Assembly (NCBI GenBank): GCA_947474275.1
Contig: CANJHY010000001.1
Coordinates: 274-64,273, forward strand
Origin: Betaproteobacteria bacterium
GTDB lineage: Bacteria; Pseudomonadota; Gammaproteobacteria; Burkholderiales; SG8-41
Direction of reading: 5' to 3'
Length of the DNA stretch: 64,000 bases
The notes beneath the pieces were generated by a model, which was not told where the DNA came from, did no database searches, and worked only from the letters and a program-made list of their open reading frames with translations. Position numbers and translations under genes: made by a program. Shown here in pieces: positions 2,374 through 41,698 of this stretch; position 1 is the stretch's first letter, and each line of letters begins with the position of its first letter.

Positions 2374-3351
2374 ATGAAAAACTTGTCCTTTTGGAAGTCG
2401 GATTGGTTTCTCGGATTGGTGGTTACGCTGGTGCTGTTCATCGCATCCGGCGGCGACCTGATCCAGAGCCTGGAGCGCAAAGCGTACGACCTCGGGGTGA
2501 GGTCGGCGTCGCGCGCGCCTTCCGATCGCATTGCGGTCATCGCGATCGACGATCAGAGCATTGCGAACATCGGTCGCTGGCCGTGGCCGCGCGACGTGCA
2601 CGCCAAAATGACCGACATTCTGTCCAACGCCAACGCCAGCGCGAAGACGATAGGCTATACGGCATTTTTTTTCGAGCCCCAGGTTGATGCGGGGCTCGCG
2701 TACATCAACAAGTTGAACGAGGTGTATGGCGCGTCGAAGTTCAAGGGTTCCCACGATCCCGACGCCGAGAAGCTCGAGGCCCTGCTCGCGGAAGCGTCCG
2801 GCGCCCTCAATACCGACCAGCGGCTGGCCGAGAGTTTCAAGAAGGCGAACAACGTGCTGCTGCCGATGGTGTTCCAGCAGTTTCCCTTTGAGCCGCAGGG
2901 CAATCCCGACAAGCCGCTGCCGGACAATATCGCGGCGAACGGGATACTCATCAAGGACAAGAACGCCGATGTCCTGCCGCCGCCCGGCATCAATCCCGCA
3001 TACCCGATCCCTGAACTGACCGCCAGCGCAGTAGGCATAGGCCACCTGAACGCGCAGCAGGATGTTGATGGCGCAACGCGCACCGAGCCCCTGATCGTGC
3101 GCTATTACGACCGGTTTTTCCCGTCGCTGTCGATGATGCTGGTGGCGAAGTATCTGAACCTGCAGGTTACCGACATCCAGGCCAAGCCGGGCGAAGACGT
3201 GCGCATCGGCAAGCTGCGCGTAGGCACCGACCCCGAACTGCGGATGTATACGTTTTTTTACAGCGACTCCGGCGACAAGCGCGCGTTCCCGATCGATTCA
3301 TTCTTCGACGTCTACACCGGCAAGATTCCGGCGTCCAAGTACCAGGACTAG
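2374..3351 (+). CDS. CHASE2 sensor domain, N-terminal fragment of a CHASE2-Ser/Thr kinase ended by an in-frame TAG
   Basis: N-terminal TM segment, then IAVIAIDDQSIANIGRWPWPRDVHA (CHASE2 hallmark). It ends at TAG 3349-3351 in the same frame as the next ORF. Confidence 0.7.
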   Translation: MKNLSFWKSDWFLGLVVTLVLFIASGGDLIQSLERKAYDLGVRSASRAPSDRIAVIAIDDQSIANIGRWPWPRDVHAKMTDILSNANASAKTIGYTAFFFEPQVDAGLAYINKLNEVYGASKFKGSHDPDAEKLEALLAEASGALNTDQRLAESFKKANNVLLPMVFQQFPFEPQGNPDKPLPDNIAANGILIKDKNADVLPPPGINPAYPIPELTASAVGIGHLNAQQDVDGATRTEPLIVRYYDRFFPSLSMMLVAKYLNLQVTDIQAKPGEDVRIGKLRVGTDPELRMYTFFYSDSGDKRAFPIDSFFDVYTGKIPASKYQD

Positions 3352-3357
3352 ATTGTA

Positions 3358-4941
3358 TTGATCGGCGCCACCGCCACCGGGCTCGGCATTTCTCAGGTGA
3401 CGCCGGTCGCGCCGCGCATGGCGCCGGTGGAGACCCTCGCGCATTCGGTGTCGAGCATCATGAAGGAAGATTTTTTCATCGCACCGACGTGGGGCATATG
3501 GGTTGAGAAGCTGGTGTTCCTGCTGGTGGCGGCCTACCTGATCGCGCTGCTGCCGCGGTTGAAGGCGGGGATGGGGGCGATTTGCACGGCATCGTTGTTC
3601 GTCATCCTGCTGGTTGCGCATTTCGTGCTGATGGGAACGCAACTGATGTGGATCCAGCTGATGGCGGCGGTGACGCTGCTCCTGATAGGCCATCTCGCGC
3701 TGACCACCAAACGTTTTCTTGTTACCGAAAGCAGCAAGGCGCGCTCGGATGTTGATCTTGCCCAAAGCCACCGCATGCTGGGTCTCGGCTACCAGGGGCA
3801 GGGTCAGCTCGATATGGCGTTCGACTATTTCCGCAAGCTGCCGGCTGACGATTCCGTGCTCGATCTGATATACAACCTTGCACTTGACTACGAGCGCAAG
3901 CGCCAGTTCAACAAGGCGGAAAACGCGTTCAAATATATCGCCGAGAAAAACCCGAAGTTCAAGGACATCGCGGAGCGCGTTGGGCGCGCCAAAGCGATGT
4001 CCGAGACGGTCATACTCGGCGGCGCCGGCGGACATCCTGGCGGCACCGTGATCCTGCCGGGCGGCGGCGTCGAGAAGCCGATGCTGGGCCGCTACCAGGT
4101 CGAGAAAGAACTCGGCAAGGGCGCGATGGGCGTGGTTTATCTCGGCAAGGACCCGAAAATCGGGCGCGTGGTGGCGATCAAGACCATGGCGTTGTCGCAG
4201 GAGTTTGATGCCGACGAACTGCAGGACGTAAAAGACCGTTTCTTCCGCGAAGCGGAGACTGCCGGCCGCCTCAATCACCCGCATATCGTGACGATATTCG
4301 ATGCCGGTGAAGAGCACGATCTCGCCTACATCGCCATGGAATTCCTGAAGGGCAAGGATCTTACGCCGTTCATCAAGCCGGACGTTCTGCTGCCGTTGCC
4401 GAAGGTCATGAGCATCATCGCACGGGTCGCCGAGGCGTTGTCGTACGCCCACACCAACAACGTCGTGCACCGCGACATCAAGCCCGCGAACATCATGTAC
4501 GAGCTCGAGAGCGATACTGTCAAAGTCACCGACTTCGGCATCGCGCGCATCACGGATTCATCCAAGACCAAGACCGGCATGGCCCTCGGCACGCCGAGCT
4601 ACATGTCGCCCGAGCAGCTGTCGGGCAAGAAAATCCAGGGCAGTTCGGATTTGTTCTCACTCGGCGTGACTCTCTACCAGATGACCTGCGGCTATCTGCC
4701 GTTTCAGGGCGATTCGATGGCGCAACTGATGTTCAAAATCGCCAACGAACCGCACGTCGATATTCTGACGCGCAACCCGGCGCTGCTGCCGTGTCTGGTT
4801 GAAATCATCAACAAGGCACTCGCCAAGCAGCCCGAAGACCGCTACCAGACTGGCGATGAATTCGCGCAGGTGATCAGGGCGTGCATGGCGGAAGGCGGCG
4901 ACGCGGCGGTGAAATCCGACGTCGTCGACATCGGAATCTAA
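3358..4941 (+). CDS. remainder of CHASE2 domain + TM helices + TPR-like linker + Ser/Thr protein kinase domain
   Basis: Starts with IGATATGLG..TPV (mid-CHASE2) and hydrophobic helices. Kinase motifs are GKGAMGVVY, VAIK, HRDIKPAN, DFG and GTPSYMSPEQ. The start is only nominal (TTG 3358; the next ATG is at 3418). Confidence 0.75.
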   Translation: MIGATATGLGISQVTPVAPRMAPVETLAHSVSSIMKEDFFIAPTWGIWVEKLVFLLVAAYLIALLPRLKAGMGAICTASLFVILLVAHFVLMGTQLMWIQLMAAVTLLLIGHLALTTKRFLVTESSKARSDVDLAQSHRMLGLGYQGQGQLDMAFDYFRKLPADDSVLDLIYNLALDYERKRQFNKAENAFKYIAEKNPKFKDIAERVGRAKAMSETVILGGAGGHPGGTVILPGGGVEKPMLGRYQVEKELGKGAMGVVYLGKDPKIGRVVAIKTMALSQEFDADELQDVKDRFFREAETAGRLNHPHIVTIFDAGEEHDLAYIAMEFLKGKDLTPFIKPDVLLPLPKVMSIIARVAEALSYAHTNNVVHRDIKPANIMYELESDTVKVTDFGIARITDSSKTKTGMALGTPSYMSPEQLSGKKIQGSSDLFSLGVTLYQMTCGYLPFQGDSMAQLMFKIANEPHVDILTRNPALLPCLVEIINKALAKQPEDRYQTGDEFAQVIRACMAEGGDAAVKSDVVDIGI

Positions 4942-4946
4942 CGATC

Positions 4947-5774
4947 ATGATAGTCAATCTCGGCACCGCACTCGAAGTCGTCACCGCCACCGATCCGGGC
5001 ATGGTGCGCTCGCATAACGAAGACAGCATCGGCACCGACGCTGAAATCGGCCTCGCGGTGCTGGCTGACGGCATGGGCGGCTACAACGCCGGCGAGGTCG
5101 CCAGCGGCATCGCGGTCGCCATGCTCAGCACGGAAATGAAGCAGGCGCTCGAAAACCACGAGCCGCACGCGATCGATAGCACGGGCGAAACGCTCGCCGA
5201 GAAATTCGTGCGCGAGAATTCAGCCAAGGCAAACGCCGCGATTTACCAGACCGCCAAGAGCCAGCCGCAATATGCGGGCATGGGCACCACCCTCGTAGTG
5301 GCACTGTTCTTCGACAATCGCATGACGGTCGGCCATATCGGCGACTCGCGCCTCTACCGGCTGCGCGGCGACGCTTTCGAACAGGTGACGCGCGATCATT
5401 CGCTGTTGCAGGAACAAATCGACAGCGGCATGATTACGAAGGAACAGGCGCGCTACTCGCAGAACAAGAATCTGGTCACGCGCGCGGTCGGTATCGACCC
5501 GGAGGTCGAGACCGAAGTCCACACTTACAGCGTCGAGCCCGGCGATATCTACCTGCTGTGCTCGGACGGTTTGAGCGACATGGTCCAGGATGAGGACATC
5601 CATTCGACCTTGAGTATGCTGCAATCGAATTTGCCGCTGGCGGCGACGCAGCTGGTGCAACTCGCCAATGACAGCGGCGGGCGCGACAATATATCGGTAA
5701 TCCTGGTGCGGGTGATTGAGGATTTTGGAGTGCCCACGGGATGGTTAGCCAAATTCAAGGCGTGGTTTAGATAA
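4947..5774 (+). CDS. PP2C-family Ser/Thr protein phosphatase
   Basis: ATG 4947 lies 6 nt after the kinase stop. RSHNEDS, LADGMGG, GDSRLY, LLCSDGL and GGRDNISV are typical PPM motifs. Confidence 0.9.
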   Translation: MIVNLGTALEVVTATDPGMVRSHNEDSIGTDAEIGLAVLADGMGGYNAGEVASGIAVAMLSTEMKQALENHEPHAIDSTGETLAEKFVRENSAKANAAIYQTAKSQPQYAGMGTTLVVALFFDNRMTVGHIGDSRLYRLRGDAFEQVTRDHSLLQEQIDSGMITKEQARYSQNKNLVTRAVGIDPEVETEVHTYSVEPGDIYLLCSDGLSDMVQDEDIHSTLSMLQSNLPLAATQLVQLANDSGGRDNISVILVRVIEDFGVPTGWLAKFKAWFR

Positions 5775-5795
5775 TAAGGTTACAGGGATACTGCC

Positions 5796-6557
5796 ATGGC
5801 GAAGTTGATCATGAGTTTGGATAACGCGGTGATTCGGGAAGTTCCGCTCGATAAGGAGCGCTTCACTATCGGCCGCAAAGCGCACAACGACATCCAGATC
5901 GACAATCTGGCCGTCAGCGGCGAGCACGCATTGATAGTGACCATCCTTAACGATTCGTTTCTCGAGGACCTGGGCAGCACCAATGGCACCCTGGTCAACG
6001 GCAACCCGGTCAAGAAACACATTCTGCAGACCAACGATGTGATCGAAATCGGCAAGTACAAGCTGAAGTTTGTCAGCGAAGCGCCGACTGGCGCGGCGTC
6101 GGTCGCCGATTTCGAGAAAACCATGGTGCTCCGCGCGCCGATAGGCAAAATGAATCCGCCGGGTCCGGGCGGCGGCAGTTTTGGTGATACCCAGATCAGC
6201 CCTACGGCAACGCAAATGACCACTCAAAGCCAGCCTTCGCCGGCAAACACGGCAGCTGCTGTCGCTGCTGCCGCTGTCAAGGCGCCGGAAAAACTCGCGG
6301 CCATCCAGATTTTGACCGGCCCGTCGGCGGGTAAGGAACTCGAGCTGACCAAGAACCTGACGACGCTGGGCAAGCCGGGCGTGCAGGTGGCGGTGATTAC
6401 GCGCCGTCCGCATGGTTACTTCATTACGCACGTCGAGGGCGCCAATTTCCCGGTCATTAACGGCAAGGTGCTTGATGCGCAGGCGCACCAGCTCAACGAC
6501 CACGACGTGGTAGAGTTGGCGGGGGTAAAAATGGAGTTCTTTTTCAAGAACGGCTAG
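5796..6557 (+). CDS. protein with two FHA domains separated by a low-complexity Ala/Thr/Pro linker
   Basis: N-terminal FTIGR...SGEHA...GSTNGTLVNG and a C-terminal second FHA-like module (LTTLGKPG...INGKVL). Confidence 0.8.
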   Translation: MAKLIMSLDNAVIREVPLDKERFTIGRKAHNDIQIDNLAVSGEHALIVTILNDSFLEDLGSTNGTLVNGNPVKKHILQTNDVIEIGKYKLKFVSEAPTGAASVADFEKTMVLRAPIGKMNPPGPGGGSFGDTQISPTATQMTTQSQPSPANTAAAVAAAAVKAPEKLAAIQILTGPSAGKELELTKNLTTLGKPGVQVAVITRRPHGYFITHVEGANFPVINGKVLDAQAHQLNDHDVVELAGVKMEFFFKNG

Positions 6558-6792
6558 ATTGCGGCGCCTGTTCGGGCGCAGCCAGCGGGCCGTTTCTCCA
6601 CCCACGACATTTCAGCGCCCGACCCATGAGCCGATCGCTGGCGTCATGCGGCAACCTCGCCGCTGGGGCGCCACGACAAATACACGCAGCGCGCGGGGCG
6701 TCTGCCGCCAGCGCAAAGGACACAAGTTTTACTGCATTGGGGAGCGGTAGCGGCGCACACTTCCCCATACCGACGGCCGCATAGGAGGCGGG

Positions 6793-9069
6793 TTGAAAAA
6801 AAATATCGTTCGCATTGGTCTGGGCCTCGCCCTGCTGCTGGCATTTCTGGGCCACGCCGCAAAATGGGGATTCGGCAGCTGGACTTTCGAGCTGCCGCTG
6901 GTAAATCGGCTCGAGGCAATTGTTTATGACACGCGGCTGGCGCTGACCATGCCGCGCACCGTCGATCCGCGCATCGTCATTCTCGACATCGACGACAAAA
7001 GCCTGGCCGAGAGGGACAAAGGCGGCGAGGGACGCTGGCCGTGGCCGCGCGATCGCATGGCGCTGCTGCTCGACAAATTGTTCGACCACTACCAAATCGC
7101 CATTGTCGGTATTGACGTCGTCTTCGCGGAGCGTGACGAGAGTTCGGGCCTCAAAGTGCTGCAGCAACTGGCCCAAAAGGAAATGAAGGACGTCGCGGGC
7201 TTTCAGTCGGCGCTCAAGCAGCTCCAGCCACAGCTCGATTACGACGAAATCTTTGCAAATCACATGCGGAACCGCGCCATTGTGCTCGGTTACACCTTCA
7301 ACTACGGGTCGGCGGAAAGTGGCGGCGCGCCCGCTACAACCATAGGCCAATTACCGCAGCCGGTGCTGCCTTCAGGCACCTTCACCGGGAAAAATATCGG
7401 TTTTTACAAATTCGAGGGCCACACGGCAAACCTGCCTGAATTTCAAAAGGCCGCAGCCAGCGCGGGCCACTTCAGTATGGAACCCGATGCGGACGGAATT
7501 CTGCGGCGAGTGCCCATGTTGGCGGAGTACAAAGGGGCCTATTACGAGTCGCTTTCGCTTGCCATGGTGCGCATGCTGATCGGCATGCCGAATGTCGTCC
7601 CCGGATATCCCAGTGACAATGCGCTTATCCTCAGCAAGAAATACTCCGGGCTGGAGTGGCTGGAAGTCGGCAATATCAAGGTGCCAGTGGACGAAGCGGT
7701 AACGGCATTGATTCCCTACCGCGGCAAGCAGAAAAGCTTCCAATACGTGTCGGCCGTGGACGTCCTGAACGAGCGCGTCGCGTTGGACGACCTGAAGAGC
7801 AAGATCGTGCTGGTTGGGACGACGGCGTCGGGCTTGCTGGACTTGCGTGCGACGCCGGTGGAAGCGGTATATCCGGGGGTCGAGGTCCACGCCAATTTGA
7901 TCTCGGGCATGATCGACCGCAACATCAAGCAAAAGCCGCCCTATGTTATCGGCGCCGAGTTTTTGTCGCTGCTGGTCGCCGGCCTGGCGATGGCGCTGCT
8001 GCTGCCGCTGCTGAATCCATTGAAATCGCTGCTCGTGACGCTGGCGGTGTTGATGACCGTGTTGTTCACGAATCTGCTGGTGTTTCACGTCGGCAACCTG
8101 GTGCTGCCGCTGGCATCGGGGCTGATGCTGATTTCTCTGCTGTTTGCGCTCAACATGACTTACGGCTACTTCGTCGAAACGCGCGGCAAACGGCAGATCA
8201 CGGGGCTCTTTGGCCAGTACGTGCCGCCGGAACTGGTCGATGAAATGGCGCGCAATCCCGAGAGCTTCTCGATGGAAGGCGAATCGCGCGAGATGACCGT
8301 TCTCTTCACCGACGTGCGCGGTTTCACCACCATCTCCGAAGGGCTGGACCCGAAACAGCTGTCACAGCTGATGAACGAGTTTCTGACGCCGCTGACGGAA
8401 GTCATTTACAAGCACCGCGGCACCGTTGATAAATTCATGGGTGACTGCATCATGGCGTTCTGGGGCGCGCCGTTCGCCGATCCGGCGCATGCCAGGAACG
8501 GCATCCTGGCCGGTCTCGAGATGCACCAGATACTGAAGAAACTGAAGCCTGAATTCCAGGCGCGCGGCTGGCCTGAAATCCGCATCGGCGTCGGCCTCAA
8601 CACCGGCCGCATGAGCGTCGGCAACATGGGATCGAAGCTGCGGACAGCCTATACTGTGATGGGGGACGCGGTAAATCTCGCGTCCCGGCTCGAAGGCATC
8701 ACAAAGGAGTATGGCGCTGATATCATAGTCGGCGAAGGGACCAAGGACGCGGTGCCGGATGTCGTCTTTCGCGAGCTCGATCGCGTGCGCGTGAAGGGCA
8801 AGGACGAAGCGGTGACGATCTTTGAGCCGTTCGGCATGCAGGGTCAGGTCGACAAGGCGAAGCTCGAGGAAATCAAGCTTTACACCCAGTTTTTGCGGCT
8901 GTATCGGGCGCAGGACTGGGACCAGGCGGAGTTGCAGCTGTTTAATTTGCAGAAACAGATTCCCGGTAATCCGCTCTACAGCCACACCTTCGTGGAGCGG
9001 ATCACCTATTTGCGCGCGAACCCGCCGGGCAAGGGCTGGGACGGCGCGTTCACATTTACGACCAAATGA
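6793..9069 (+). CDS. CHASE2-domain class III adenylate/guanylate cyclase (Lys/Thr specificity pair suggests adenylate cyclase)
   Basis: TTG 6793 with AGGAGG at 6783-6788. CHASE2 motifs (ILDIDDKSL...GRWPWPRD, KIVLVGTTASGL), TM helices, then MTVLFTDVRGFT, DKFMGDCIMAFWG and YTVMGDAVNLASRLE. Confidence 0.9.
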   Translation: MKKNIVRIGLGLALLLAFLGHAAKWGFGSWTFELPLVNRLEAIVYDTRLALTMPRTVDPRIVILDIDDKSLAERDKGGEGRWPWPRDRMALLLDKLFDHYQIAIVGIDVVFAERDESSGLKVLQQLAQKEMKDVAGFQSALKQLQPQLDYDEIFANHMRNRAIVLGYTFNYGSAESGGAPATTIGQLPQPVLPSGTFTGKNIGFYKFEGHTANLPEFQKAAASAGHFSMEPDADGILRRVPMLAEYKGAYYESLSLAMVRMLIGMPNVVPGYPSDNALILSKKYSGLEWLEVGNIKVPVDEAVTALIPYRGKQKSFQYVSAVDVLNERVALDDLKSKIVLVGTTASGLLDLRATPVEAVYPGVEVHANLISGMIDRNIKQKPPYVIGAEFLSLLVAGLAMALLLPLLNPLKSLLVTLAVLMTVLFTNLLVFHVGNLVLPLASGLMLISLLFALNMTYGYFVETRGKRQITGLFGQYVPPELVDEMARNPESFSMEGESREMTVLFTDVRGFTTISEGLDPKQLSQLMNEFLTPLTEVIYKHRGTVDKFMGDCIMAFWGAPFADPAHARNGILAGLEMHQILKKLKPEFQARGWPEIRIGVGLNTGRMSVGNMGSKLRTAYTVMGDAVNLASRLEGITKEYGADIIVGEGTKDAVPDVVFRELDRVRVKGKDEAVTIFEPFGMQGQVDKAKLEEIKLYTQFLRLYRAQDWDQAELQLFNLQKQIPGNPLYSHTFVERITYLRANPPGKGWDGAFTFTTK

Positions 9070-9079
9070 CACGGCATCG

Positions 9080-9844
9080 ATGAAACTCCGGATACTCGGC
9101 TGCAGTGGCGGCATTGGCGGTGACTTGCGCACTACGTCGATGCTGCTCGATCACGATATCCTGATCGACGCCGGCACCGGCGTCGGCGACCTGAGCATCG
9201 ACGAATTGGCGCGCATCGACCATGTATTCCTGACCCATTCGCATCTCGATCACGTGACGTCGATCCCGTTCATGGTCGATTCGGTGGGCTGGATGCGCGA
9301 CAAGCCGATCACCGTGCACGCCATAGAGCCGACGCTGGAAGTCCTGCGCCAGCATCTTTTCAACTGGAAGTTGTGGCCGGATTTCAGCCAGATCCCGGAT
9401 GCGCAGAAGCCGTTTTTGCGTTACGAGGCCGTGGCCCTGGGCAAGACGGTCGATGTCGGCGGCCGCAAACTGACGCCGCTGCCCGCGAATCACGTGGTGC
9501 CGGCGATCGGCTACCAGCTCGATTCCGGCCGCGCGAGCCTCGCTTTCACCGGGGATACGACGACCAATGATGCGTTCTGGACGGAAGTCAACAAGATCGA
9601 CAACCTGCGGTATTTGATTATTGAAACGGCGTTTTGCAACCGTGAGCGTGACCTCGCGATCGCCTCCAAGCATCTGTGTCCGAGCATGCTGGCCGAGGAA
9701 CTGGCGAAACTCAAGCGCAAGGCCGATGTCTATATTACGCACCTGAAGCCGGGCGAAGTCGAAGTCACCATGCAGGAAATCCTGGAATGCGCCGGCGCCT
9801 ACAGCCCGCGCATGCTGGAGAACAACCAGGTGTTCGAATTATGA
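9080..9844 (+). CDS. class II 3',5'-cyclic-nucleotide phosphodiesterase (MBL fold, CpdP-like)
   Basis: MKLRILGCSGG start 11 nt after the cyclase stop. THSHLDHV matches the class II PDE HxHLDH signature. Confidence 0.8.
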   Translation: MKLRILGCSGGIGGDLRTTSMLLDHDILIDAGTGVGDLSIDELARIDHVFLTHSHLDHVTSIPFMVDSVGWMRDKPITVHAIEPTLEVLRQHLFNWKLWPDFSQIPDAQKPFLRYEAVALGKTVDVGGRKLTPLPANHVVPAIGYQLDSGRASLAFTGDTTTNDAFWTEVNKIDNLRYLIIETAFCNRERDLAIASKHLCPSMLAEELAKLKRKADVYITHLKPGEVEVTMQEILECAGAYSPRMLENNQVFEL

Positions 9845-9916
9845 GCACAGGGCGCAAATTCCGCGTCCTGAATTCGGATTTTGGTATGTGTGCCAAATGT
9901 GAGAGGTCAAGCCGCC

Positions 9917-12310
9917 ATGAGTAGCGTACTTGAAACCAAGCCGGTCGCGCAGGACAACCTGGCGGAGAAGCTGAATTTCTCCAAGGCCCTGCAATCGGTC
10001 ACCAATCGCATCCACGCCACCAGCAACATAGACGAAATCATGCTGGAGTTGAGCCAGGACATCTGCGGCCTCTTCAACGCCGACCGGCTCACGCTCTATC
10101 TGATGAGCGAAGACAAAACATCCATCGTCTCGAAGGTCAAGACCGGGCTTAACTCGTTCAAGGACCTGAAGTTGCCGATCGCAGAGCAAAGTATCGCCGG
10201 CTTTGTCGCGGTGCATAAGAAGATGATCAACATCCGCGACGTCTACGACGAAAAGGAACTCAAGGCCTACAGCCCGCAGCTGAATTTCCTGAAGCAGGTG
10301 GACGTCAAGACCGGCTATCGCACCAAGCAGATGCTGGCCGCGCCGGTCATAGACGCGCAAACCAAGGAATTGATCGGCGTTATGCAGATCATCAATTCCA
10401 AGAGCGGGCAGCCGTTCCCGGCGGTCATGGAAGAAGGCGCGACGCACGTTGCGGAAACCCTGGCTATCGCGTTTCGCCAGCGCCAGAAGCCCGTTGCCGG
10501 GGTCAAGGGCAAGTACGATCACCTGGTGTCGAACGCGGTCATCTCGGCCGAGGAGCTGGAGCTGGCGACGCGCTCGGCACGCCGCAAGAATCTCGACGTC
10601 GAAACCGTGCTGATCGATGAATTTCAGGTCAAGCTGGACAAAATCGGCGAGGCGCTGGCGGCTTATTTCGACGTGCCTTACGAGCCGCACAAGGCGGACC
10701 GCGTGAAGCCGATGGACCTCATGAAAAACATGAGCCGGGAATTCGTCGAAAGCAGCCTGTGGATACCGATCGACGAAACGAAAGACGGCATCATGATATT
10801 GACGACCGACCCGGAAAAAATCCGCGGCTCGAGGGTTGTCAACAACGTTTATCCGAAAAGCAAGATCGTCTACCGCGTTTGCTGTGCGCGCGAATTCGTC
10901 GCGACGCTCGATCTCTTTTTTGGCGGCAGCGGCGGGTCGGCGGGTGTTGGCAACGTCGATGACGGCACCGATATCGGCGATTTGTTGTCCGGTCTCGAAA
11001 ATGAAGAGACGCTTGAGGACAATAACGAAGACGTCGCGTCGGCGGCGTCGGACAACGAGGTCGTCAAGCTCGTCAACAAGATTATCGTCGACGCCTACAA
11101 GCAGGGCGCGTCCGATATACATATCGAGCCCTATCCCGGCAAGGGCAAGACCGAGATCCGCTTCCGCAAGGACGGCTCGCTGATGAATTACATTTCGGTG
11201 CCGGCCGCCTATCGAAACGCCATCGCCGCGCGCCTGAAAATCATGTGCGACCTCGATATTTCCGAGCGCCGCAAACCGCAGGACGGCAAGATCAAATTCA
11301 AGAAGTACGGTCCGCTCGACATCGAACTGCGGGTGGCGACCATCCCGTCCGCCGGCGGCGTCGAAGACATCGTGATGCGGATACTTGCCGCTGGCGAGCC
11401 GATTCCGCTCGACAAGCTCGGGTTGTCCAATTACAACCTGGTCAAGTGTAAAGAGGCAATTGAAAAGCCCTACGGCCTCTTTTTCGTGTGCGGCCCGACC
11501 GGTTCAGGAAAAACCACGACGCTGCACTCGGTGCTCGGCTATCTGAACACGCCTGAGACCAAGATCTGGACCGCCGAAGACCCGGTTGAAATTACGCAGC
11601 GCGGGTTGCGCCAGGTGCAGATGAATCCCAAGGCCGGGCTGACGTTTGCGATCGCGATGAAAGCGTTTTTGCGGGCTGACCCGGACATCATCATGGTCGG
11701 TGAAATGCGCGACAAGGAAACGGTCGGCACTGGTATCGAAGCATCACTCACCGGTCACTTGGTGTTCGCCACCCTGCACACCAATTCGGCGCCGGAATCA
11801 ATCATCCGCCTGCTCGATATGGGCATGGACCCGTTTAACTTCGCCGATGCGCTGCTCGGCATTCTCGCGCAGCGTCTCGCCAAGCGGTTGTGCGGAAAAT
11901 GCAAGAAGCCATACGTGCCGTCGGCCGAAGAACTCAAGCTGTTCGTCGAAGAGTATTCCGGCGAATTGATGAATACCGAAGCGTGGAAGAAGGACCCCAA
12001 GGGCGAACGGGAAAAACTTATCCAGATGTGGACCAAGGACTTCGGCAACGATAAAGGCGAGATCCAGTTTCACAAGGCGGTCGGCTGCGAGACGTGCGGT
12101 GGCGGCGGTTACAAAGGCCGGGTCGGTTTGCACGAGCTTCTGATCGGCACCGACCCCGTAAAGAAACTCATTCAGGAGCACGCGCGGGTGGCCGATTTGT
12201 TCGCCTGCGCGCTTGGCGAAGGCATGCGCACCCTGAAGCAGGACGGCATGGAAAAAGTCCTGCTGGGGATGACCGATATGGCGCAGGTGCGCGCCGTCTG
12301 TATCAAGTAA
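9917..12310 (+). CDS. GspE/PilB-family secretion ATPase with an N-terminal GAF domain
   Basis: ATG 9917 after GAGAGG. GAF block FLKQVDVKTGYRTKQMLAAPV...IGVMQIINSK, then a T2SSE_N-like region. Walker A CGPTGSGKTTTL, Walker B DIIMVGEMRD, His box GHLVFATLHTN, and tetracysteine CGKC...CETCGGGGYKGR. Confidence 0.9.
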   Translation: MSSVLETKPVAQDNLAEKLNFSKALQSVTNRIHATSNIDEIMLELSQDICGLFNADRLTLYLMSEDKTSIVSKVKTGLNSFKDLKLPIAEQSIAGFVAVHKKMINIRDVYDEKELKAYSPQLNFLKQVDVKTGYRTKQMLAAPVIDAQTKELIGVMQIINSKSGQPFPAVMEEGATHVAETLAIAFRQRQKPVAGVKGKYDHLVSNAVISAEELELATRSARRKNLDVETVLIDEFQVKLDKIGEALAAYFDVPYEPHKADRVKPMDLMKNMSREFVESSLWIPIDETKDGIMILTTDPEKIRGSRVVNNVYPKSKIVYRVCCAREFVATLDLFFGGSGGSAGVGNVDDGTDIGDLLSGLENEETLEDNNEDVASAASDNEVVKLVNKIIVDAYKQGASDIHIEPYPGKGKTEIRFRKDGSLMNYISVPAAYRNAIAARLKIMCDLDISERRKPQDGKIKFKKYGPLDIELRVATIPSAGGVEDIVMRILAAGEPIPLDKLGLSNYNLVKCKEAIEKPYGLFFVCGPTGSGKTTTLHSVLGYLNTPETKIWTAEDPVEITQRGLRQVQMNPKAGLTFAIAMKAFLRADPDIIMVGEMRDKETVGTGIEASLTGHLVFATLHTNSAPESIIRLLDMGMDPFNFADALLGILAQRLAKRLCGKCKKPYVPSAEELKLFVEEYSGELMNTEAWKKDPKGEREKLIQMWTKDFGNDKGEIQFHKAVGCETCGGGGYKGRVGLHELLIGTDPVKKLIQEHARVADLFACALGEGMRTLKQDGMEKVLLGMTDMAQVRAVCIK

Positions 12311-12320
12311 AGACTGCGCC

Positions 12321-13979
12321 ATGAACCAGATGCAGCACCCCCGGGATTCCGCCCATCTGTTCGAGCGTCTGGAGCAGCTCAATCAGGTCGGCGTCGCGCT
12401 GTCCAAGGAAACCGACATCAACCGGTTGCTGGAAGCGATCCTGCTGGCGGCGAAGAAAATCACCAATGCCGACGGGGGAACCCTCTACCGCGTAATCGAC
12501 GACCGCACGCTTAAATTCGAGATCATGCGCAACGATACGCTCAAGATCGCGATGGGGGGCACCACCGGGGCCGACATTCCCTTCCCGCCCATCAACCTGT
12601 TCGACCAGGACGGCAAGCCGGTGAATACGATGGTCGTCGCGCACGCGTTTCATCACGACACCTCGGTCAACATCGCCGACGCCTATATCGAGGAAGGCTT
12701 CGACTTTTCGGGCACCAAGACCTTCGACCAGAAGACCGGCTACCGTTCACAGTCGTTCCTCACGGTGCCGATGAAGAACCATGAGAACGAGATCATCGGC
12801 GTGCTGCAGCTGCTGAACGCCAAGAGCCAGGCGACCGGCGCGGTAAGCCCGTTCTCGTCGGAGGACCAGCAGCTCGCCGAGTCGCTGGCCTCGCAGGCGG
12901 CAATCGCGCTGACCAACCGGCTGCTGATCAACCACCTCGAAAACCTGTTCGAGTCTTTCATCAACCTCATCAACGCCGCGATCGACGACAAGTCGCCCTA
13001 CACCGCCGGCCATTGCGAACGCGTGCCTCAGCTGACGATGCTGCTGGCGGAGGCCGTCAACAATTGCGCGGTCGGGCCGCTGAAGAATTTCAGCATGAAC
13101 GACAAGGACCGCTACGAACTGAAGATCGCGGGCCTGCTGCACGATTGCGGCAAGGTGACCACGCCGGTGCACGTGGTCGACAAGGCGACCAAATTGCACA
13201 CGATATTCGACCGCATCGCCCTCGTCGATACGCGGTTCGAGGTGATCAGACGCGACGCGGAAATCGCGCTGTTGAAGACCAAACTGGCAGCGCTGGAGAA
13301 AAAAGACAAGCAGGCGGTGGACGCCGCCGAGCATGAATTCAAGCTGCAGATGCGCCGCATCGACGAGGACCGCGAATTCCTGCGTTTCTGCAATGTCGGC
13401 GGCGAGTTCATGAAACCGGAGGACCTGGAGCGGGTAAAACAGACCTCGGGCAAGTACCGGTGGCGCGACGTCGAAGGCAGCGACGCTGATTTTCTGACGG
13501 CGGACGAAGTCGAAAATCTGACCATCCGCGCCGGCACGTTGACCGCGGCCGAGCGCCAGATCATCAACCATCACATCGACGTCACTATCCAGATGCTGGA
13601 AGCACTGCCGTGGCCCAAGCACCTTAAGAACGTGCCCGAATACGCCGGCGGCCACCACGAGCGCATGGATGGCAAGGGCTATCCGCGCGGACTCACGCGC
13701 GACCAGATGTCGGTGCAGGCGCGCTGCATGGGCATCGCCGATATCTTCGAGGCGCTGACCGCCAGGGACCGGCCCTATAAAAAAGGCAAGACCCTGTCGG
13801 AATCACTGTCCATTCTGGGCAAGTTCAAGCTGGGCGGCCACATCGATCCCGACCTGTTTGACATATTCATGTGGGAAAAGGTCTATCTCAAGTACGCCGA
13901 GCAGTGCATGGACAAGGAACAGGTCGATGACGTCGATCTTGCCCAGGTTCCAGGCTACGTGCCGCCGCCGGCGGCGTAA
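12321..13979 (+). CDS. GAF domain-containing HD-GYP phosphohydrolase (putative c-di-GMP phosphodiesterase)
   Basis: GAF block DQKTGYRSQSFLTVPMKNHENEIIGVLQLLNAK. HD motif LLHDCGK and HHERMDGKGYPRGL (GYP). Confidence 0.85.
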   Translation: MNQMQHPRDSAHLFERLEQLNQVGVALSKETDINRLLEAILLAAKKITNADGGTLYRVIDDRTLKFEIMRNDTLKIAMGGTTGADIPFPPINLFDQDGKPVNTMVVAHAFHHDTSVNIADAYIEEGFDFSGTKTFDQKTGYRSQSFLTVPMKNHENEIIGVLQLLNAKSQATGAVSPFSSEDQQLAESLASQAAIALTNRLLINHLENLFESFINLINAAIDDKSPYTAGHCERVPQLTMLLAEAVNNCAVGPLKNFSMNDKDRYELKIAGLLHDCGKVTTPVHVVDKATKLHTIFDRIALVDTRFEVIRRDAEIALLKTKLAALEKKDKQAVDAAEHEFKLQMRRIDEDREFLRFCNVGGEFMKPEDLERVKQTSGKYRWRDVEGSDADFLTADEVENLTIRAGTLTAAERQIINHHIDVTIQMLEALPWPKHLKNVPEYAGGHHERMDGKGYPRGLTRDQMSVQARCMGIADIFEALTARDRPYKKGKTLSESLSILGKFKLGGHIDPDLFDIFMWEKVYLKYAEQCMDKEQVDDVDLAQVPGYVPPPAA

Positions 13980-14107: not shown

Positions 14108-14422
14108 CTACTTCCTCGTAATATAGACGACGAGCCCTTCGGTGGCGACTTCGATGAATTTTTCGCTGTAGCCCATTTCCTGCAATTCCCAGCGAAACGT
14201 ATTACCGAGGCGGGCTTTTTTGTAGACGCCGAGTTTGTGCTGCTGCCTGAAATCTATGGCGCGCTTGAACGTGTCCTCGAGGATCGTCACCAGTCGCTTC
14301 TGCGAAATCTTCCGTTCCTTGCCTTTATCGAGCGCCGGTGGATAACGCTTGGCGAGATCCTGCGCCAAACCTGTGGCAAACGAATCCACATCCTTGCTCG
14401 AAACCGTGCCGAACAATGCCAT
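14108..14422 (-). CDS. hypothetical small protein (104 aa)
   Basis: Clean ORF with non-GC-skewed, Lys-rich composition, at the end of the minus-strand arm. No family recognised. Confidence 0.5.
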   Translation of the reverse strand: MALFGTVSSKDVDSFATGLAQDLAKRYPPALDKGKERKISQKRLVTILEDTFKRAIDFRQQHKLGVYKKARLGNTFRWELQEMGYSEKFIEVATEGLVVYITRK

Positions 14423-16114: not shown

Positions 16115-16236
16115 AATGCCGGCGGACGCCTGCCCGTGACGAGTTTTCTTTAAAAAAGAAACGCTTACATTATCAAGCTGGAGGGATTACCGCGTCAATA
16201 GCGCGGCGGTTGCTGTAGTATGCAGAAGCAAGCCCC

Positions 16237-18003
16237 ATGCTACCCGCCGCCAACGTGATGCTGACCAATTTAATTTCGCGCCTGTTTTCTTCGCGCTCGC
16301 CGCGTTCGCCGGAAGCCGCGCGCGGCGCCATCGACGACTTGCTGCAGCGGGGGTATCGCAGTCAGCAGGCCGGTGAGCGCGCCGTCGCGGAAAATAACTA
16401 CCGCGACGCGCTCAAAATCGATGCGCTGCATGCCCACGCGCATTACCTGCTGGGCGCGCTGCTGGGCGAGGGTGGAAATTTCACCGACGCGGCGGCCCAT
16501 CTCGATCGGGCGCTCGCCGCGAGGCCGGATTTCGCCGCTGCCCATGCGGCACGCGGCAACGTATTTCTCATGCTAGAAGAGCGGCAGGCCGCCATTGCAA
16601 GTTACGAGCAGGCGCTGCGGCTGGACCCCGGCAACGCCGCGGCGCATTGCAATCTGGGACTGATCTGGCAGGCGGCCGGCGCGAGCGAACAGGCGTTGTT
16701 GCGATTCGAGCGTGCGTATGCGCTTGCGCCGGAAATTCCCGACCTGCTGAAAAACCTGACGTTGTCCTATATCGAGTTCGAACGCTATGAAGAAGCGCAG
16801 GCATTGCTGCAGGCAGTTTTAGCGCAGACACCAAGGCGCATCGAAACGCTCAAATGCCTTGGGCTGGTGCTGCAGAAACTGCACCGCCCGCAAGAGGCGC
16901 TGCAGCACTACCTGACCGTGCGCGCGATCGACGGCGCCGATGCCGAGCTCCTGAACAATCTCGGCATCGTGTATCAGGATCTCGGGCGGCTCGAAGAGGC
17001 GATCGCGGCTTATGACGCGGCCATCTTGCTCAAGTCTGATTTTACGCTGGCCATCTGGCACCGCTCGCTTGCTTATTTGTTGCAGCACGACTTCGCACGC
17101 GGCTGGCCGGACTACGAATTGCGGCTGCTGGGCGCCGACCGCCGGCCACGAGCTGCGGAGGGTGCGAACTGGGACGGTGGCGCGTTGGCGGGTAAAAAAT
17201 TGCTGGTCTACGCGGAGCAGGGCCTGGGCGATGAGATCATGTTCGCATCCTGCATTCCGGACGTGGTGGCCGCGGGCGCGAATTGCGTGATCGAATGCTC
17301 CCCCAAGCTTGAGAAGCTGTTCCGGCGCTCGTTTCCGCAAACCGCGGTTCGTGCAACGAACCCGGACAAGTCGCTGCCCGCCGGTGCCGGCGAGATGGAC
17401 CTCGACCTGCAAAGCTCGATCGGCAGCCTGCCGCAGTACTTGCGCCGCGCGCGCGCGGATTTCCCGCAGCACAGCGGCTATTTGCGCGCCGATCCGCAGG
17501 CGGTCGCGGCATGGCGGGAGCGTCTCGCCGCGCTTGGGCCCGGCCTCAAAGTGGGTATCTCATGGCAGGGCGGCACGCACAAATCGCGGCGCCCGGTGCG
17601 CTCCATGCCGCTTGCGCAATGGCTGCCGATCCTGCAGATGGAAGGCGCGCACTTCGTCGATCTCCAATATACCGACTGCCGCGCTGAAATTGATGAACTG
17701 CGCGCGGCCACGGGCGTCACGGTGCACAGTTGGAACGAAGTACGCGCCGACTACGAGCAGGCGGTGGCGCTGGTCACGGCCCTCGATCTTGTAATCAGCG
17801 TGTGCACCGCCGTTATTCACCTGGGCGGCGCGCTCGGCACGCCGGTATGGGTGATGGCGCCGTACAGTCCCGAGTGGCGCTATGGAATTGCCGGGCAGGA
17901 GATGCCTTGGTATCCTTCGGTGCGCGTGTTCCGGCAGTCCGTGTATGGAGAATGGGGCGCGGTTATTGATGATGTCGCGCAATCATTGCGTAAGATGGCC
18001 TGA
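16237..18003 (+). CDS. TPR-repeat protein fused to GT9-like (GT-B, heptosyltransferase-like) glycosyltransferase domain, paralog 1
   Basis: N-terminal TPR repeats. C-terminal LLVYAEQGLGDEIMFASCIPD, GYLRADP, GISWQGGT..RSMPL, DLVISVCTAVIHLGGALGTPVWV and PWYPSVRVFRQ. Confidence 0.8.
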   Translation: MLPAANVMLTNLISRLFSSRSPRSPEAARGAIDDLLQRGYRSQQAGERAVAENNYRDALKIDALHAHAHYLLGALLGEGGNFTDAAAHLDRALAARPDFAAAHAARGNVFLMLEERQAAIASYEQALRLDPGNAAAHCNLGLIWQAAGASEQALLRFERAYALAPEIPDLLKNLTLSYIEFERYEEAQALLQAVLAQTPRRIETLKCLGLVLQKLHRPQEALQHYLTVRAIDGADAELLNNLGIVYQDLGRLEEAIAAYDAAILLKSDFTLAIWHRSLAYLLQHDFARGWPDYELRLLGADRRPRAAEGANWDGGALAGKKLLVYAEQGLGDEIMFASCIPDVVAAGANCVIECSPKLEKLFRRSFPQTAVRATNPDKSLPAGAGEMDLDLQSSIGSLPQYLRRARADFPQHSGYLRADPQAVAAWRERLAALGPGLKVGISWQGGTHKSRRPVRSMPLAQWLPILQMEGAHFVDLQYTDCRAEIDELRAATGVTVHSWNEVRADYEQAVALVTALDLVISVCTAVIHLGGALGTPVWVMAPYSPEWRYGIAGQEMPWYPSVRVFRQSVYGEWGAVIDDVAQSLRKMA

Positions 18004-18038
18004 ACTTCCGGTCCGATTAACCACTACGGCAGCACTTC

Positions 18039-18716
18039 ATGATCAAAGTTTTTATCGGCTACGACTCGCGCGAGGCGGCCGCATACAGCGTGTTGGCCCA
18101 TAGCATTCATGCCAGGGCATCGGTGCCGGTGGCGGTAGTGCCGGTGATGTTGAGCGAGTTGAAAGGCGTGTTGACGCGCGAACGCCATCCGCTGCAGTCG
18201 ACCGATTTTTCGTTTTCGCGCTTTCTGACGCCCTTTCTGTCCGACTACCAGGGCTGGTCCATATTCATGGACTGCGACATGCTGGTGCTCGACGACATTG
18301 AGAAACTGTATGCGCTGCGCGACGAGCGCTATGCGGTCATGGTGGTAAAGCACGACCACGTGCCCAAAGAGACCCGCAAATTTCTCGATCAGCCGCAAAC
18401 CGCATACCAGAAGAAAAACTGGTCGAGCGTGATGCTGTTCAACAACGCGCAGTGCCGCGCGCTGACGCCCGACTACGTCAATACTGCATCGGGCCTCGAA
18501 CTCCATCAATTCAAATGGCTGGCGAACGACGAACTGATCGGTGAAATTCCGGCGCGCTGGAACCACCTCGTTGGCTACAACGCGCCGAACCGCGATGTGT
18601 CACTGGTGCATTACACCCTGGGCGGGCCGTACTTTCAGGAGTACCGCGATTGCGAGTACGCGGACGAGTGGCGGGCCGCGCGGCAGGACATGCTGAACGT
18701 CGAGCAACGCAAATGA
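18039..18716 (+). CDS. GT-A type (GT8-like) nucleotide-sugar transferase
   Basis: MIKVFIGYDSRE... with DxD (FMDCDMLVLDD). Family assignment is from memory only. Confidence 0.55.
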   Translation: MIKVFIGYDSREAAAYSVLAHSIHARASVPVAVVPVMLSELKGVLTRERHPLQSTDFSFSRFLTPFLSDYQGWSIFMDCDMLVLDDIEKLYALRDERYAVMVVKHDHVPKETRKFLDQPQTAYQKKNWSSVMLFNNAQCRALTPDYVNTASGLELHQFKWLANDELIGEIPARWNHLVGYNAPNRDVSLVHYTLGGPYFQEYRDCEYADEWRAARQDMLNVEQRK

Positions 18717-18756
18717 ACGCGCCGCGCGAACCCCGCATCGCGGCTGACCGCGTTGC

Positions 18757-20634: not shown

Positions 20635-20709
20635 TCATACGGTCCGCGGCGGGCGCAAGCCGCAGGCCGGCGGCCCGGCGGCTGTGGCCGTAGTACACTT
20701 TCCGTTCCC

Positions 20710-22128: not shown

Positions 22129-22904
22129 AAAAAAAGCACCATCTGCCGAGTATTTACACTGAAACCGGACTGATCTATCTGTGGGACTACCTGTTGGCGC
22201 ATCACGGCGTCCAGGAGCGGGCAGCCGTCAATCATGACGCGCTCGGTTTACTCGCGCACTGTCTGACGCGATTTCCGCAATCGAAGGCCCACCTGCTGCA
22301 GGACCTGTATGTCACTTATAAACTGGCCGACAGAAAAAACAGGTTTTTCGTCGAGTTCGGCGCTGCTGACGGCGTGTTTCTGAGCAACACCCATCACCTC
22401 GAGAAAAACCTCGGGTGGCGCGGTATTCTTGCCGAACCTTTCCCCGGCTGGCGCGACCCGCTGCGCGCGAACAGAAACGCTGCTGTCGACTATCGGTGCG
22501 TGTGGCGGGAGTCGGGCAAGCAGCTTGAATTCCTGGCCGCCAACCGGTATCCGGAATTGTCGTCGCTTAAAAGCTTTGCCGGGAATGATATGCACGCCGA
22601 GTCCCGCCTGGTTGACGCAGAAACATTCATGGTCGATACCGTGTCCCTGAATGATTTGCTGGCGGAGCACGGCGCGCCCGCATCGATCGACTATCTGTCC
22701 GTCGACACCGAGGGCAGCGAATTCGATATCCTCGAGACTTTCGATTTTGCGAAGTACCAGGTCCGCGTGATCACGGTAGAGCACAATTTCAAGCCTGACG
22801 CGCGCGAGTCCATTCAGCGCTTGCTGGAGTCCAATGGTTTCCGGCGGGAGTTTGAAATCTTCTCCAAGGGCGATGACTGGTATTTTCATCCGGACCGAAT
22901 GTGA
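22125..22904 (+). CDS. FkbM-family methyltransferase
   Basis: TTG 22125 overlaps the upstream TGA (TTGA). FFVEFGAADGVFLSNT...GILAEP and IDYLSVDTEGSEFDIL. Confidence 0.75.
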   Translation: MKKKHHLPSIYTETGLIYLWDYLLAHHGVQERAAVNHDALGLLAHCLTRFPQSKAHLLQDLYVTYKLADRKNRFFVEFGAADGVFLSNTHHLEKNLGWRGILAEPFPGWRDPLRANRNAAVDYRCVWRESGKQLEFLAANRYPELSSLKSFAGNDMHAESRLVDAETFMVDTVSLNDLLAEHGAPASIDYLSVDTEGSEFDILETFDFAKYQVRVITVEHNFKPDARESIQRLLESNGFRREFEIFSKGDDWYFHPDRM

Positions 22905-22955
22905 TGGATTCAGCGGCTTGTAACCGGCAGGGGCGTTCATGGTTCGCGTGATCCA

Positions 22956-41601: not shown

Positions 41602-41649
41602 GTATTGTATTTATTTAGTATTGTATTTATTTAGTATTGTATTTATTTA
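41602..41649. repeat. three perfect tandem copies of the AT-rich 16-mer gtattgtatttattta
   Basis: Read directly: 41602-41617, 41618-41633 and 41634-41649, ending 50 nt upstream of ATG 41699. Confidence 0.95.
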
Positions 41650-41698
41650 CAAATCGGCCTCGCCACCGGGCGTGGGCCCCGGCCGATGGGCTTATACG

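Follow-up and report, generated by a model that had tools for sequence, protein, structure and literature searches.

The present computational analysis concerns a 64,000-nucleotide stretch of DNA (referred to as the window) from Betaproteobacteria bacterium (GenBank assembly GCA_947474275.1, contig CANJHY010000001.1, positions 274 to 64,273 of the forward strand), which carries a cassette of seven co-oriented genes on the + strand between positions 2374 and 13979. In order, these genes encode a CHASE2-(three transmembrane segments)-TPR-Ser/Thr protein kinase (2374..4941), a PP2C-type Ser/Thr phosphatase of the Stp1/IreP family (4947..5774), an FHA protein (5796..6557), a CHASE2-(transmembrane)-class III adenylate cyclase of the Lys/Thr type (6793..9069), a metallo-β-lactamase (MBL)-fold phosphodiesterase presumed to remove cyclic nucleoside monophosphates (cNMPs; 9080..9844), a GAF-MshEN-N2-ATPase of the hexameric, PilB-like type IV pilus/type II secretion system (T2SS) family (9917..12310), and a GAF-HD-GYP phosphodiesterase (12321..13979). 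On balance, though by a narrow preference, we read them as a conserved betaproteobacterial cassette in which cyclic AMP (cAMP) and threonine phosphorylation would govern an ATPase motor dedicated to type IV pili, and in which cAMP would also be tied to the turnover of cyclic di-GMP (c-di-GMP).

An initial annotation had described an eight-gene unit. Its eight + strand open reading frames (ORFs) were recovered at the same coordinates, ORF listing and translation reproduced its junctions (4941/4947, 5774/5796, 9069/9080 and 12310/12321) together with the largest gap (6557/6793), and Pfam agrees with its domain calls for all eight ORFs. The gene number did not stand. ORFs 2374-3351 and 3358-4941 share a frame and are separated solely by an amber codon (TAG) at 3349-3351 inside the CHASE2 domain (translation YQD*IVLIGATATG), with CHASE2 profile positions 3-185 falling in the first ORF and positions 192-252, TPR and Pkinase (2.5e-56) in the second (Pfam). 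In four near-identical metagenome contigs (L001-L004 in our numbering of loci), TAG is replaced by AAG (Lys), which is the sole mismatch in 81 aligned bases, and a single CHASE2-kinase of 855 amino acids is encoded. Both halves of the gene are contiguous in frame in all relatives (tblastn). The two ORFs thus represent one CHASE2-kinase gene split by TAG, which reduces the count to seven genes. The stop codon is peculiar to this copy and is either a nonsense mutation or a sequence error; since it interrupts the sensor kinase, the phospho-threonine input may be inactive in this strain. One start site also had to be corrected, as the ATPase begins at ATG 9917 in the database proteins rather than at TTG 9881.

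In the orthologues, the components of a phospho-threonine pathway carry their expected motifs. The G-loop, VAIK, HRD, DFG and SPE motifs of the kinase are invariant in 54 sequences. The phosphatase (Pfam PP2C_2, 1.6e-16) scores 255 bits against NCBIfam NF033484, exceeding the cut-off of 230, and its metal-binding motifs DGMGG, GDSR, SDGL and RDN do not vary among orthologues. The FHA protein opens with a canonical FHA domain at residues 24-86 (Pfam FHA, 6.9e-22), in which GR, S..H and NGT are likewise invariant, followed by a Thr/Gln/Pro-rich linker and a second domain that Pfam matches below threshold (Yop-YscD_cpl, 0.0036; FHA, 0.17). Aligned with the N-terminal half by hhalign (86%, E 5e-6), this C-terminal half has GK in place of GR and lacks the S..H segment. 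It therefore appears to be a degenerate FHA homologue without the Ser/His segment that binds phospho-threonine, an assignment that rests on the hhalign comparison; the single-sequence AlphaFold2 model of the FHA protein was unusable (predicted local distance difference test score, pLDDT, of 40.6). Accordingly, the double-FHA protein of the initial annotation retains its first domain as canonical and loses the second. The parts of its putative phospho-threonine circuit, kinase, phosphatase and FHA protein, have intact motifs in relatives, and the kinase is interrupted in this copy. An adjacent kinase, a PP2C phosphatase and an FHA domain with phospho-threonine-binding residues, as would define a Ser/Thr kinase/PP2C/FHA switch, are all present, with the kinase gene of the window carrying the TAG.

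The fourth gene codes for the second CHASE2 protein (Pfam CHASE2, 6.9e-56; Guanylate_cyc, 3.2e-21). The nearest relatives of its catalytic domain in the Protein Data Bank (PDB) are Cya2/IlaC and Pseudomonas aeruginosa CyaB (3R5G, 6.5e-36), and alignment with CyaB 3R5G and Cya2 2W01/6FHT locates the motifs FTDVRGF, VDKFMGD and YTVMGDAVNLASRLE. All 70 orthologues keep the metal-binding Asp residues, the Lys, the Thr and the transition-state Asn and Arg. The Lys in VDKFMGD and the Thr in YTVMG constitute the adenylate pair of class IIIb, which confirms the Lys/Thr specificity pair noted initially. By these signatures, the enzyme is a class III adenylate cyclase of subclass IIIb, and its predicted product is cAMP.

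The neighbouring phosphodiesterase (Lactamase_B_2, 3.4e-18) contains THSHLDH, and HxHxDH is invariant across its orthologues. Of the class II phosphodiesterase with HSHLDH that had been proposed, the motif is present and the family membership is weak, since the PDEase_II match (54 bits) covers profile positions 82-143 of 340 only, that is 62 positions, while general MBL models span the whole protein. Yeast PDE1 (4OJV) matches locally around HSHLDH (1.6e-5), the score against NCBIfam NF041851 is 39 bits compared with a cut-off of 400, and precomputed matches to Anti-Pycsar_Apyc1 are on record, although the resemblance is weak. The protein is best described as a phosphodiesterase of the MBL fold that combines class II-like with Apyc1-like traits, and we presume it to be the cNMP eraser of the cassette.

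The sixth gene product combines a GAF domain, MshEN and T2SSE (1.5e-111). Its non-GAF part aligns throughout with Myxococcus xanthus PilB (3JC8, 1e-108), starting from PilB residue 9, and the boxes GPTGSGKTTT (Walker A), TAEDPVE (Asp box), DPDIIMVGEMRD (Walker B) and TGHLVFATLHTN (His box) are invariant in 73 sequences; a tetracysteine Zn site (CGKC...CETC) was found as well. The protein scores higher against the NCBIfam PilB model (TIGR02538, 480.8 compared with a cut-off of 675.65) than against GspE (TIGR02533, 434.2 compared with 630.25), and both values lie below the curated cut-offs. This places it, as judged from the profiles, in the T2SSE superfamily (PF00437) as a PilB-like member of a distinct paralogous branch. 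The GspE/PilB assignment made at first is therefore upheld at family level, while its label as a secretion-type ATPase gives way to that of a PilB-like paralogue at a pilin-linked locus.

A c-di-GMP-binding MshEN domain consists of two 24-residue motifs with the signature R, G, G, Q (PMC12943098). In the corresponding segment of the cassette ATPase, GKYDHLVSNAVISAEELELATRSA - RRKNL - DVETVLIDEFQVKLDKIGEALAAY, the hydrophobic scaffold is kept, yet both motifs have other residues at the R, G, G and Q positions, so that canonical gating by c-di-GMP is unlikely. This degenerate segment (residues 198-250 of the window protein) is nearly invariant within the family, and the match to the Pfam MshEN model is confined to the later residues, 251-339. 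We also considered an MshEN domain that still binds c-di-GMP and would close a loop with the HD-GYP enzyme, and rejected this option in view of the replacement of all signature residues. The GAF domain that precedes MshEN appears to be the obvious substitute sensor for the lost c-di-GMP gating. As a side observation, the cassette-bearing clade has invariant ATPase residues of its own, R219/S220 and T687/W690/K691, which differ from those in other GAF-PilB clades; the latter three lie in an insert that separates the CxxC halves of the zinc finger (residues ~675-720). These residues came from a search for invariant Ser/Thr positions specific to the cassette. They are possible partner-binding or phosphorylation sites, to be taken as leads only; the 'lone' comparison set was only partly verified.

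Both GAF domains of the cassette resemble those that bind cyclic nucleotides. For the GAF of the ATPase, the best PDB match is CyaB2 (1YKD, cAMP-bound tandem GAFs; 8e-29), followed by PDE2A/5/6/10, and for the GAF of the HD-GYP enzyme it is GAF-A of PDE5 (2.5e-20), followed by CyaB2. The GAF of PmGH, a GAF-HD-GYP protein for which no ligand has been identified, is also among the top matches. A Foldseek search with a model of the ATPase N-terminus, which was built from a 9-sequence alignment (pLDDT 64) and used only to confirm the GAF fold class, returned 1YKD first and also PmGH, PDE2A/5/10 and the cAMP-bound Lcd1 GAF. The block D..TGYR(T/S) reported initially occurs in both domains, as VDVKTGYRT in the ATPase and FDQKTGYRS in the HD-GYP protein, and aligns to VDDSTGFRT of PDE2A in the alignment with 1MC0; its T, G and T/S positions do not vary among the orthologues. 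We take the D..T..T residues to correspond to D485, T488 and T492 of PDE2A GAF-B, which presumably contact the cyclic phosphate/ribose (numbering in agreement with the 1MC0 alignment). The partial NK..F..(D/E)(D/E) motif was likewise found in both, as NSK..QPFPAVMEE and NAK..SPFSSEDQ, respectively, with N, K and F kept and the acidic pair shifted. By sequence, and for the ATPase also by a fold of moderate confidence, both domains would belong to the cNMP-binding GAF group (PDE2/5/6/10/11 and CyaB1/2 type).

Membership in this group leaves room for another ligand. The cassette may be real while its GAFs sense cGMP or a non-nucleotide metabolite, in which case cAMP would go mainly to CAP-type readers, namely a cNMP_binding-rhodanese protein, a Crp-family regulator or a cNMP-binding kinase, all of which occur inside or near the cassette in some genomes (see below). 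The incomplete NKFDE motif in both domains, the proximity of the HD-GYP GAF to a cGMP-binding domain, the presence of PmGH among the top matches and the weak class II phosphodiesterase assignment would all fit with this. Nevertheless, cNMP-binding GAFs account for nearly all top matches in sequence and fold (the best for the ATPase being the cAMP-binding CyaB2), the positions that contact phosphate/ribose (D/T/T(S)) are conserved, and the position aligned with E512 of PDE2A is Gln in the ATPase GAF, as in CyaB2. Moreover, the single cyclase of the unit carries the adenylate pair. We consequently regard this explanation as improbable and cAMP as the preferred ligand.

The last gene of the cassette encodes the HD-GYP enzyme (Pfam GAF, 2.3e-14; HD/HD_5, 8.2e-40 in two stretches). 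The motifs LLHDCGK and GGHHERMDGKGYPRGL are conserved in 63 orthologues, and HDCGK and HHERMDGKGYPRGL are conserved across the family of orthologues. The catalytic half matches V-cGAP3 (5Z7C, 1.3e-22) and PmGH (4MCW). An insertion of ~110 amino acids (residues ~293-402) splits the catalytic domain at the K..KL segment, between the two HD_5 halves; an insertion of a similar kind was noted for GAF-linked HD-GYP proteins (PMC12943098).

To follow the cassette in other genomes, relatives were found by alignment of the GAF and MshEN N-terminus of the ATPase, which is encoded by at least 570 species-representative genomes. The loci compared are the best 80 of these, all of them betaproteobacterial/Burkholderiales metagenome-assembled genomes, a few with evidently wrong bin names, and gene presence and order were determined by tblastn with the window proteins, using a full-flank subset of 38 species-representative genomes. 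The order kinase, PP2C, FHA protein, CHASE2-cyclase, MBL phosphodiesterase, GAF-PilB-like ATPase and GAF-HD-GYP, on one strand, was observed in 33 of the 38. This answers the proposed check on co-occurrence of the neighbours of the GAF-ATPase across genomes, as all seven recur in the same order. The seven genes are also found on a contig whose ATPase is named Azospira oryzae by NCBI/UniRef (L091) and on one named Sulfuricella sp. (L092). The catalytic signatures of all seven genes are invariant across 48-73 orthologues, and the genes diverge in step across ~80 species. Upstream, the flanks vary by lineage, with CoA-transferase/formyltransferase genes in the window, sucCD/TerC/Usp in L005 and MgtC in L092, so that the boundaries of the cassette are sharp.

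Variable flanks, together with the messenger enzymes, could recall anti-phage defence of the cyclic-nucleotide type (Pycsar/CBASS-like) with a kinase/phosphatase checkpoint. PADLOC returned PycC-cyclase matches (best 1.1e-30) and many defence-kinase matches, and the weak similarity of the phosphodiesterase to Anti-Pycsar_Apyc1 points in the same direction. However, the PADLOC matches reflect generic likeness to class III cyclases and Hanks kinases; none was obtained for the FHA protein, the phosphodiesterase or the HD-GYP protein, and the ATPase has one weak match (mad8, 7.4e-05). The adenylate Lys/Thr pair of the cyclase and its periplasmic CHASE2 sensor also speak against defence, the cassette encodes its own messenger-degrading enzyme and is linked to pilin genes, its genes diverge in step, and none of 72,556 plasmids matched the GAF-MshEN region in tblastn. 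We therefore rejected the defence interpretation as highly improbable.

The ATPase and HD-GYP genes are the most constant part of the cassette. The GAF-MshEN-ATPase architecture itself is wider than the cassette: at 50% identity and E <= 1e-30 it comprises 254 clusters, many of which are represented by full-length proteins (~770-810 amino acids). Among the distant GAF-PilB clades, which show 44-53% identity overall, a Desulfobacterales clade (44-46% identity) and the P0393 clade carry the ATPase without cyclase, phosphodiesterase, kinase, phosphatase and FHA genes, and we therefore rejected the idea that the cassette always accompanies the ATPase. In the Desulfobacterales (L087-L089), an M48-TPR peptidase gene adjoins the lone GAF-PilB gene, and an HD-GYP gene lies ~4 kb off. 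The seven-gene cassette, seen among the loci examined only in Betaproteobacteria, would have been built around an older GAF-PilB gene.

The junctions in relatives are tight, and some stop and start codons overlap or abut. No + strand terminator-like site was found in any intergenic gap of the cassette, and the top promoter-like site (2267-2296) lies just 5' of the first gene. Co-transcription is therefore likely, and the seven genes probably form one operon. The window as a whole gave neither an Rfam nor a tRNA match, so that no riboswitch is indicated ahead of either the cassette or the pilin genes. In three genomes, a cNMP_binding-rhodanese gene (CAP-type) is inserted exactly between the phosphodiesterase and ATPase genes (L091, 8919-10001; L054, 8871-10004; L083, 8821-9915), which provides independent support for a circuit based on cyclic mononucleotides. 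In L091, genes for a Crp-family regulator and a CYTH-CHAD protein were also observed within 3 kb downstream.

The seven genes could, alternatively, represent two co-located modules with separate functions, a Ser/Thr kinase/PP2C/FHA switch acting on a different target and a cAMP module whose outputs have nothing to do with type IV pili, with the ATPase serving a T2SS, DNA uptake or another fibre and the pilin genes being ordinary chromosomal synteny. The sole sizeable intergenic gap of the window cassette (236 bp, 6557-6793) parts the FHA gene from the cyclase gene and hence the two halves. Partial loci also exist, as L045 keeps just the ATPase and HD-GYP genes, behind rpoA-rplQ, L019 has a soluble kinase and no cyclase, and the phosphodiesterase gene is absent from several genomes; L075 has a decayed cyclase gene. 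In addition, the PilB and GspE scores of the ATPase are close to each other (481 and 434 bits), the pilus platform genes are absent near the cassette in the window, and extended synteny downstream (M48 peptidase, valyl-tRNA synthetase) suggests a stable chromosomal region. On the other hand, both halves stay together in the 33 genomes mentioned above although their upstream flanks differ, and the gap is reduced to 44 bp in the Azospira-named contig and to a 4-bp overlap in Sulfuricella (L092).

The pilin genes speak to the same question. Three tandem type IVa major pilin genes lie on the + strand of the window (29416-29835, 30238-30657 and 30819-31235) and encode paralogous proteins of 139, 139 and 138 amino acids with a C-terminal Cys...Cys loop. 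Of 53 species-level loci, 23 encode type IVa pilins with the same N-terminus on the same strand downstream of the cassette, 11 of them at less than 1 kb and often at less than 300 bp from the HD-GYP stop codon, compared with none in the 10-kb upstream flanks. In the Azospira-named contig, a prepilin N_methyl gene directly follows the HD-GYP gene. No gsp genes were seen in any of the locus gene tables examined. With this bias in favour of the downstream side, a pair of unconnected modules seems unlikely to us, though less so than a different GAF ligand. Because the ATPase is PilB-like and its locus is linked to type IVa pilin genes, the output of the ATPase is most likely type IV pili.

The favoured scheme of a cAMP- and phospho-threonine-controlled pilus motor, as we infer it with respect to ligand, direction of regulation, kinase substrate, co-transcription and pilus output, would operate as follows. 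Two paralogous periplasmic CHASE2 sensors would feed two cytoplasmic currencies, cAMP and phospho-threonine. The class IIIb cyclase would make cAMP and the MBL-fold phosphodiesterase would remove it, while the N-terminal GAF of the dedicated PilB-type ATPase would read it, which would alter the capacity of this ATPase to drive type IV pilus assembly. The GAF of the HD-GYP protein would read the same messenger and alter the hydrolysis of c-di-GMP (or cGAMP), for which Tlr0485 offers a precedent. In parallel, phospho-threonine would be written by the CHASE2-kinase, erased by PP2C and read by the canonical FHA domain, with the FHA protein serving as an adaptor that depends on phosphorylation and acts on either this motor or the cyclase, by analogy with PpkA/PppA/Fha1. 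Regulation that in MshE/PilB is exerted by c-di-GMP bound to MshEN would here have passed to the GAF, and the end point would be pili assembled from the adjacent pilins.

A sharper version of this scheme, in which cAMP binds the motor GAF and gates pilus assembly in place of c-di-GMP and MshEN, the CHASE2-kinase/PP2C/FHA set forms a second gate on the motor, and the GAF-HD-GYP protein simultaneously lowers c-di-GMP, is put forward tentatively, as a plausible rather than a probable account. The central idea of the initial annotation, namely a co-inherited unit with a cNMP writer, an eraser, two candidate GAF readers and a Ser/Thr kinase/PP2C/FHA set, survives in these respects; the gene number, the interrupted kinase, the type of ATPase and its likely pilus output, the second FHA domain and the weak class II phosphodiesterase assignment call for revision. 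As read from the encoded proteins, the cassette would hold a second-messenger circuit.

Several observations weigh against the scheme. The ATPase stays below the curated cut-offs for both PilB and GspE, and since distant clades hold it alone, it does not strictly need the cassette. The assignment of the phosphodiesterase to cNMP hydrolysis rests on weak, partial matches, the nearest solved relative of the HD-GYP enzyme, V-cGAP3, is specific for cGAMP, and GAF ligands are not reliably readable from sequence, with NKFDE only partial here. The pilin linkage holds in 43% of loci, with no pilin gene within 10 kb in Sulfuricella. Finally, no pilC/pilD/pilM-Q/pilT or gsp genes for a machine that the ATPase would drive lie in the 64-kb window.

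Each module of the cassette has a known counterpart, and it is their combination in one cassette that appears to be new. The extension ATPases MshE/PilB (Vibrio cholerae VC0405 and P. aeruginosa PA14_29490) are gated by c-di-GMP through MshEN (PMC12943098). Like them, the cassette ATPase is a hexameric member of the PilB/GspE family with an N-terminal MshEN (N1) and N2, and has a second-messenger sensor fused to the N-terminus of the motor. In contrast, it has lost the R, G, G, Q motif, carries an extra GAF of the cNMP type before MshEN, scores below the NCBIfam cut-offs for PilB/GspE and is encoded without pilC/pilD or an msh cluster. In Tlr0485 from Thermosynechococcus, c-di-GMP phosphodiesterase activity requires the binding of cAMP to its GAF. 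The cassette HD-GYP protein shares with Tlr0485, PmGH and the Leptospira Lcd1 GAF the GAF-HD-GYP arrangement with intact HD and HHExxDGxGYP, a GAF of the cNMP type and the predicted cross-talk from cAMP to c-di-GMP. It differs in being encoded together with the presumed cAMP writer, eraser and a second GAF reader, in the insertion of ~110 amino acids, and in having the cGAMP-specific V-cGAP3 as the closest solved catalytic domain.

In the threonine phosphorylation pathway of the type VI secretion system (T6SS) of P. aeruginosa, PpkA is the kinase, PppA the PP2C phosphatase and Fha1 the FHA scaffold. The cassette similarly encodes a membrane sensor Hanks kinase, a PP2C phosphatase and a small FHA protein beside a machine-driving ATPase, an arrangement that by analogy suggests post-translational gating of assembly. 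The two differ in the sensor (CHASE2 instead of the periplasmic domain of PpkA), in the ATPase (PilB-like instead of ClpV) and in the second, degenerate domain of the FHA protein. The TagH model (TIGR03354) gave 37.9 bits compared with a cut-off of 120, and T6SS genes occur neither in the window nor in any locus gene table. In the CyaB/CpdA/Vfr system of P. aeruginosa, type IV pili come under cAMP control by way of the transcription factor Vfr, with the genes at separate loci. Both systems have a class IIIb membrane adenylate cyclase (the 3R5G match given above) and a dedicated phosphodiesterase with ties to type IV pilus biology. In the cassette, however, cAMP is proposed to be read by GAF domains that form part of the motor and of the HD-GYP protein, all genes stand together, the sensor of the cyclase is CHASE2 rather than MASE2, and the phosphodiesterase has the MBL fold rather than being a class III enzyme such as CpdA.

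The initial statement that no described system combines these families is in line with our search of the searchable full-text literature (most subscription journals excluded), which yielded no account of a GAF-PilB protein or of the cassette as a whole. In the databases, the proteins go under generic names, for example 'GspE/PulE family protein' or 'putative phytochrome sensor protein'. The known gating of type IV pilus motors relies on c-di-GMP, which acts either directly on MshEN or by way of FimX/PilZ, while cAMP acts on pili through transcription (Vfr). If the scheme is correct, a motor with a cAMP-type GAF and its own cyclase and phosphodiesterase would provide a direct post-translational cAMP route to pilus dynamics and would be the first cAMP-binding pilus ATPase. 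The cassette as a whole would then be a self-contained post-translational pilus controller working in three currencies (cAMP, phospho-threonine and c-di-GMP) under two paralogous CHASE2 sensors. By bringing Ser/Thr phosphorylation together with cAMP and c-di-GMP, the conserved unit would offer a compact model for the integration of these currencies, and by pairing both sensors with easily measured outputs, a tractable route to what CHASE2 senses. The wide spread of the GAF-PilB N-terminus, with the seven-gene form predominating in the full-flank subset of the best 80 loci, adds to this interest, and occurrence in cultured Azospira, by the name of the ATPase on the contig, makes the predictions testable.

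Immediately downstream of the cassette, and convergent with the HD-GYP gene, lies a gene for a conserved protein of 104 amino acids on the - strand (14108..14422), which has no Pfam match. It is the most constant immediate neighbour, directly following the HD-GYP gene in ~35 loci at 36-90% identity (tblastn), and is a possible member of the unit. Between the cassette and the pilin genes, an island of ~15 kb (16237..29022 on the + strand; 14449-29022 with both strands included) matches TPR families, Methyltransf_21 and Glycos_transf_2. It encodes at least six TPR proteins of ~470-625 amino acids, whose C-terminal halves have no Pfam match, and three FkbM-type methyltransferase domains, one of them fused to a glycosyltransferase family 2 domain. 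It also contains a glycosyltransferase family 8-like gene for a protein of 225 amino acids with a DxD motif (18039-18716), which directly precedes a pilin gene in L019 and L026. The TPR paralogues and the 225-amino-acid gene recur between the HD-GYP and pilin genes in many loci, and the island looks like a candidate cluster for glycosylation or modification of pilins (or surface proteins).

Further downstream, the window contains an M48-TPR peptidase gene (38602-40038) and, on the + strand, a gene for a Ser/Thr kinase fused to a CAP-type cNMP-binding domain (41621..42946; Pfam Pkinase 6.4e-50, cNMP_binding 2.9e-17). In L005, L017, L035 and L075, the peptidase gene and the kinase gene follow the cassette within 2-5 kb, the kinase orthologues (62-79% identity) being located behind the peptidase gene, 3.5-5.5 kb after the HD-GYP gene. 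The kinase is a possible further cAMP reader that would link the cAMP and phospho-threonine halves, with its membership in the unit being uncertain. As to the host, a gene for a 5'-nucleotidase C-domain protein (SoxB-like) adjoins one for a SoxA/TsdA-type dihaem cytochrome c on the - strand (32391-35468), and these genes suggest thiosulfate/sulfur oxidation.

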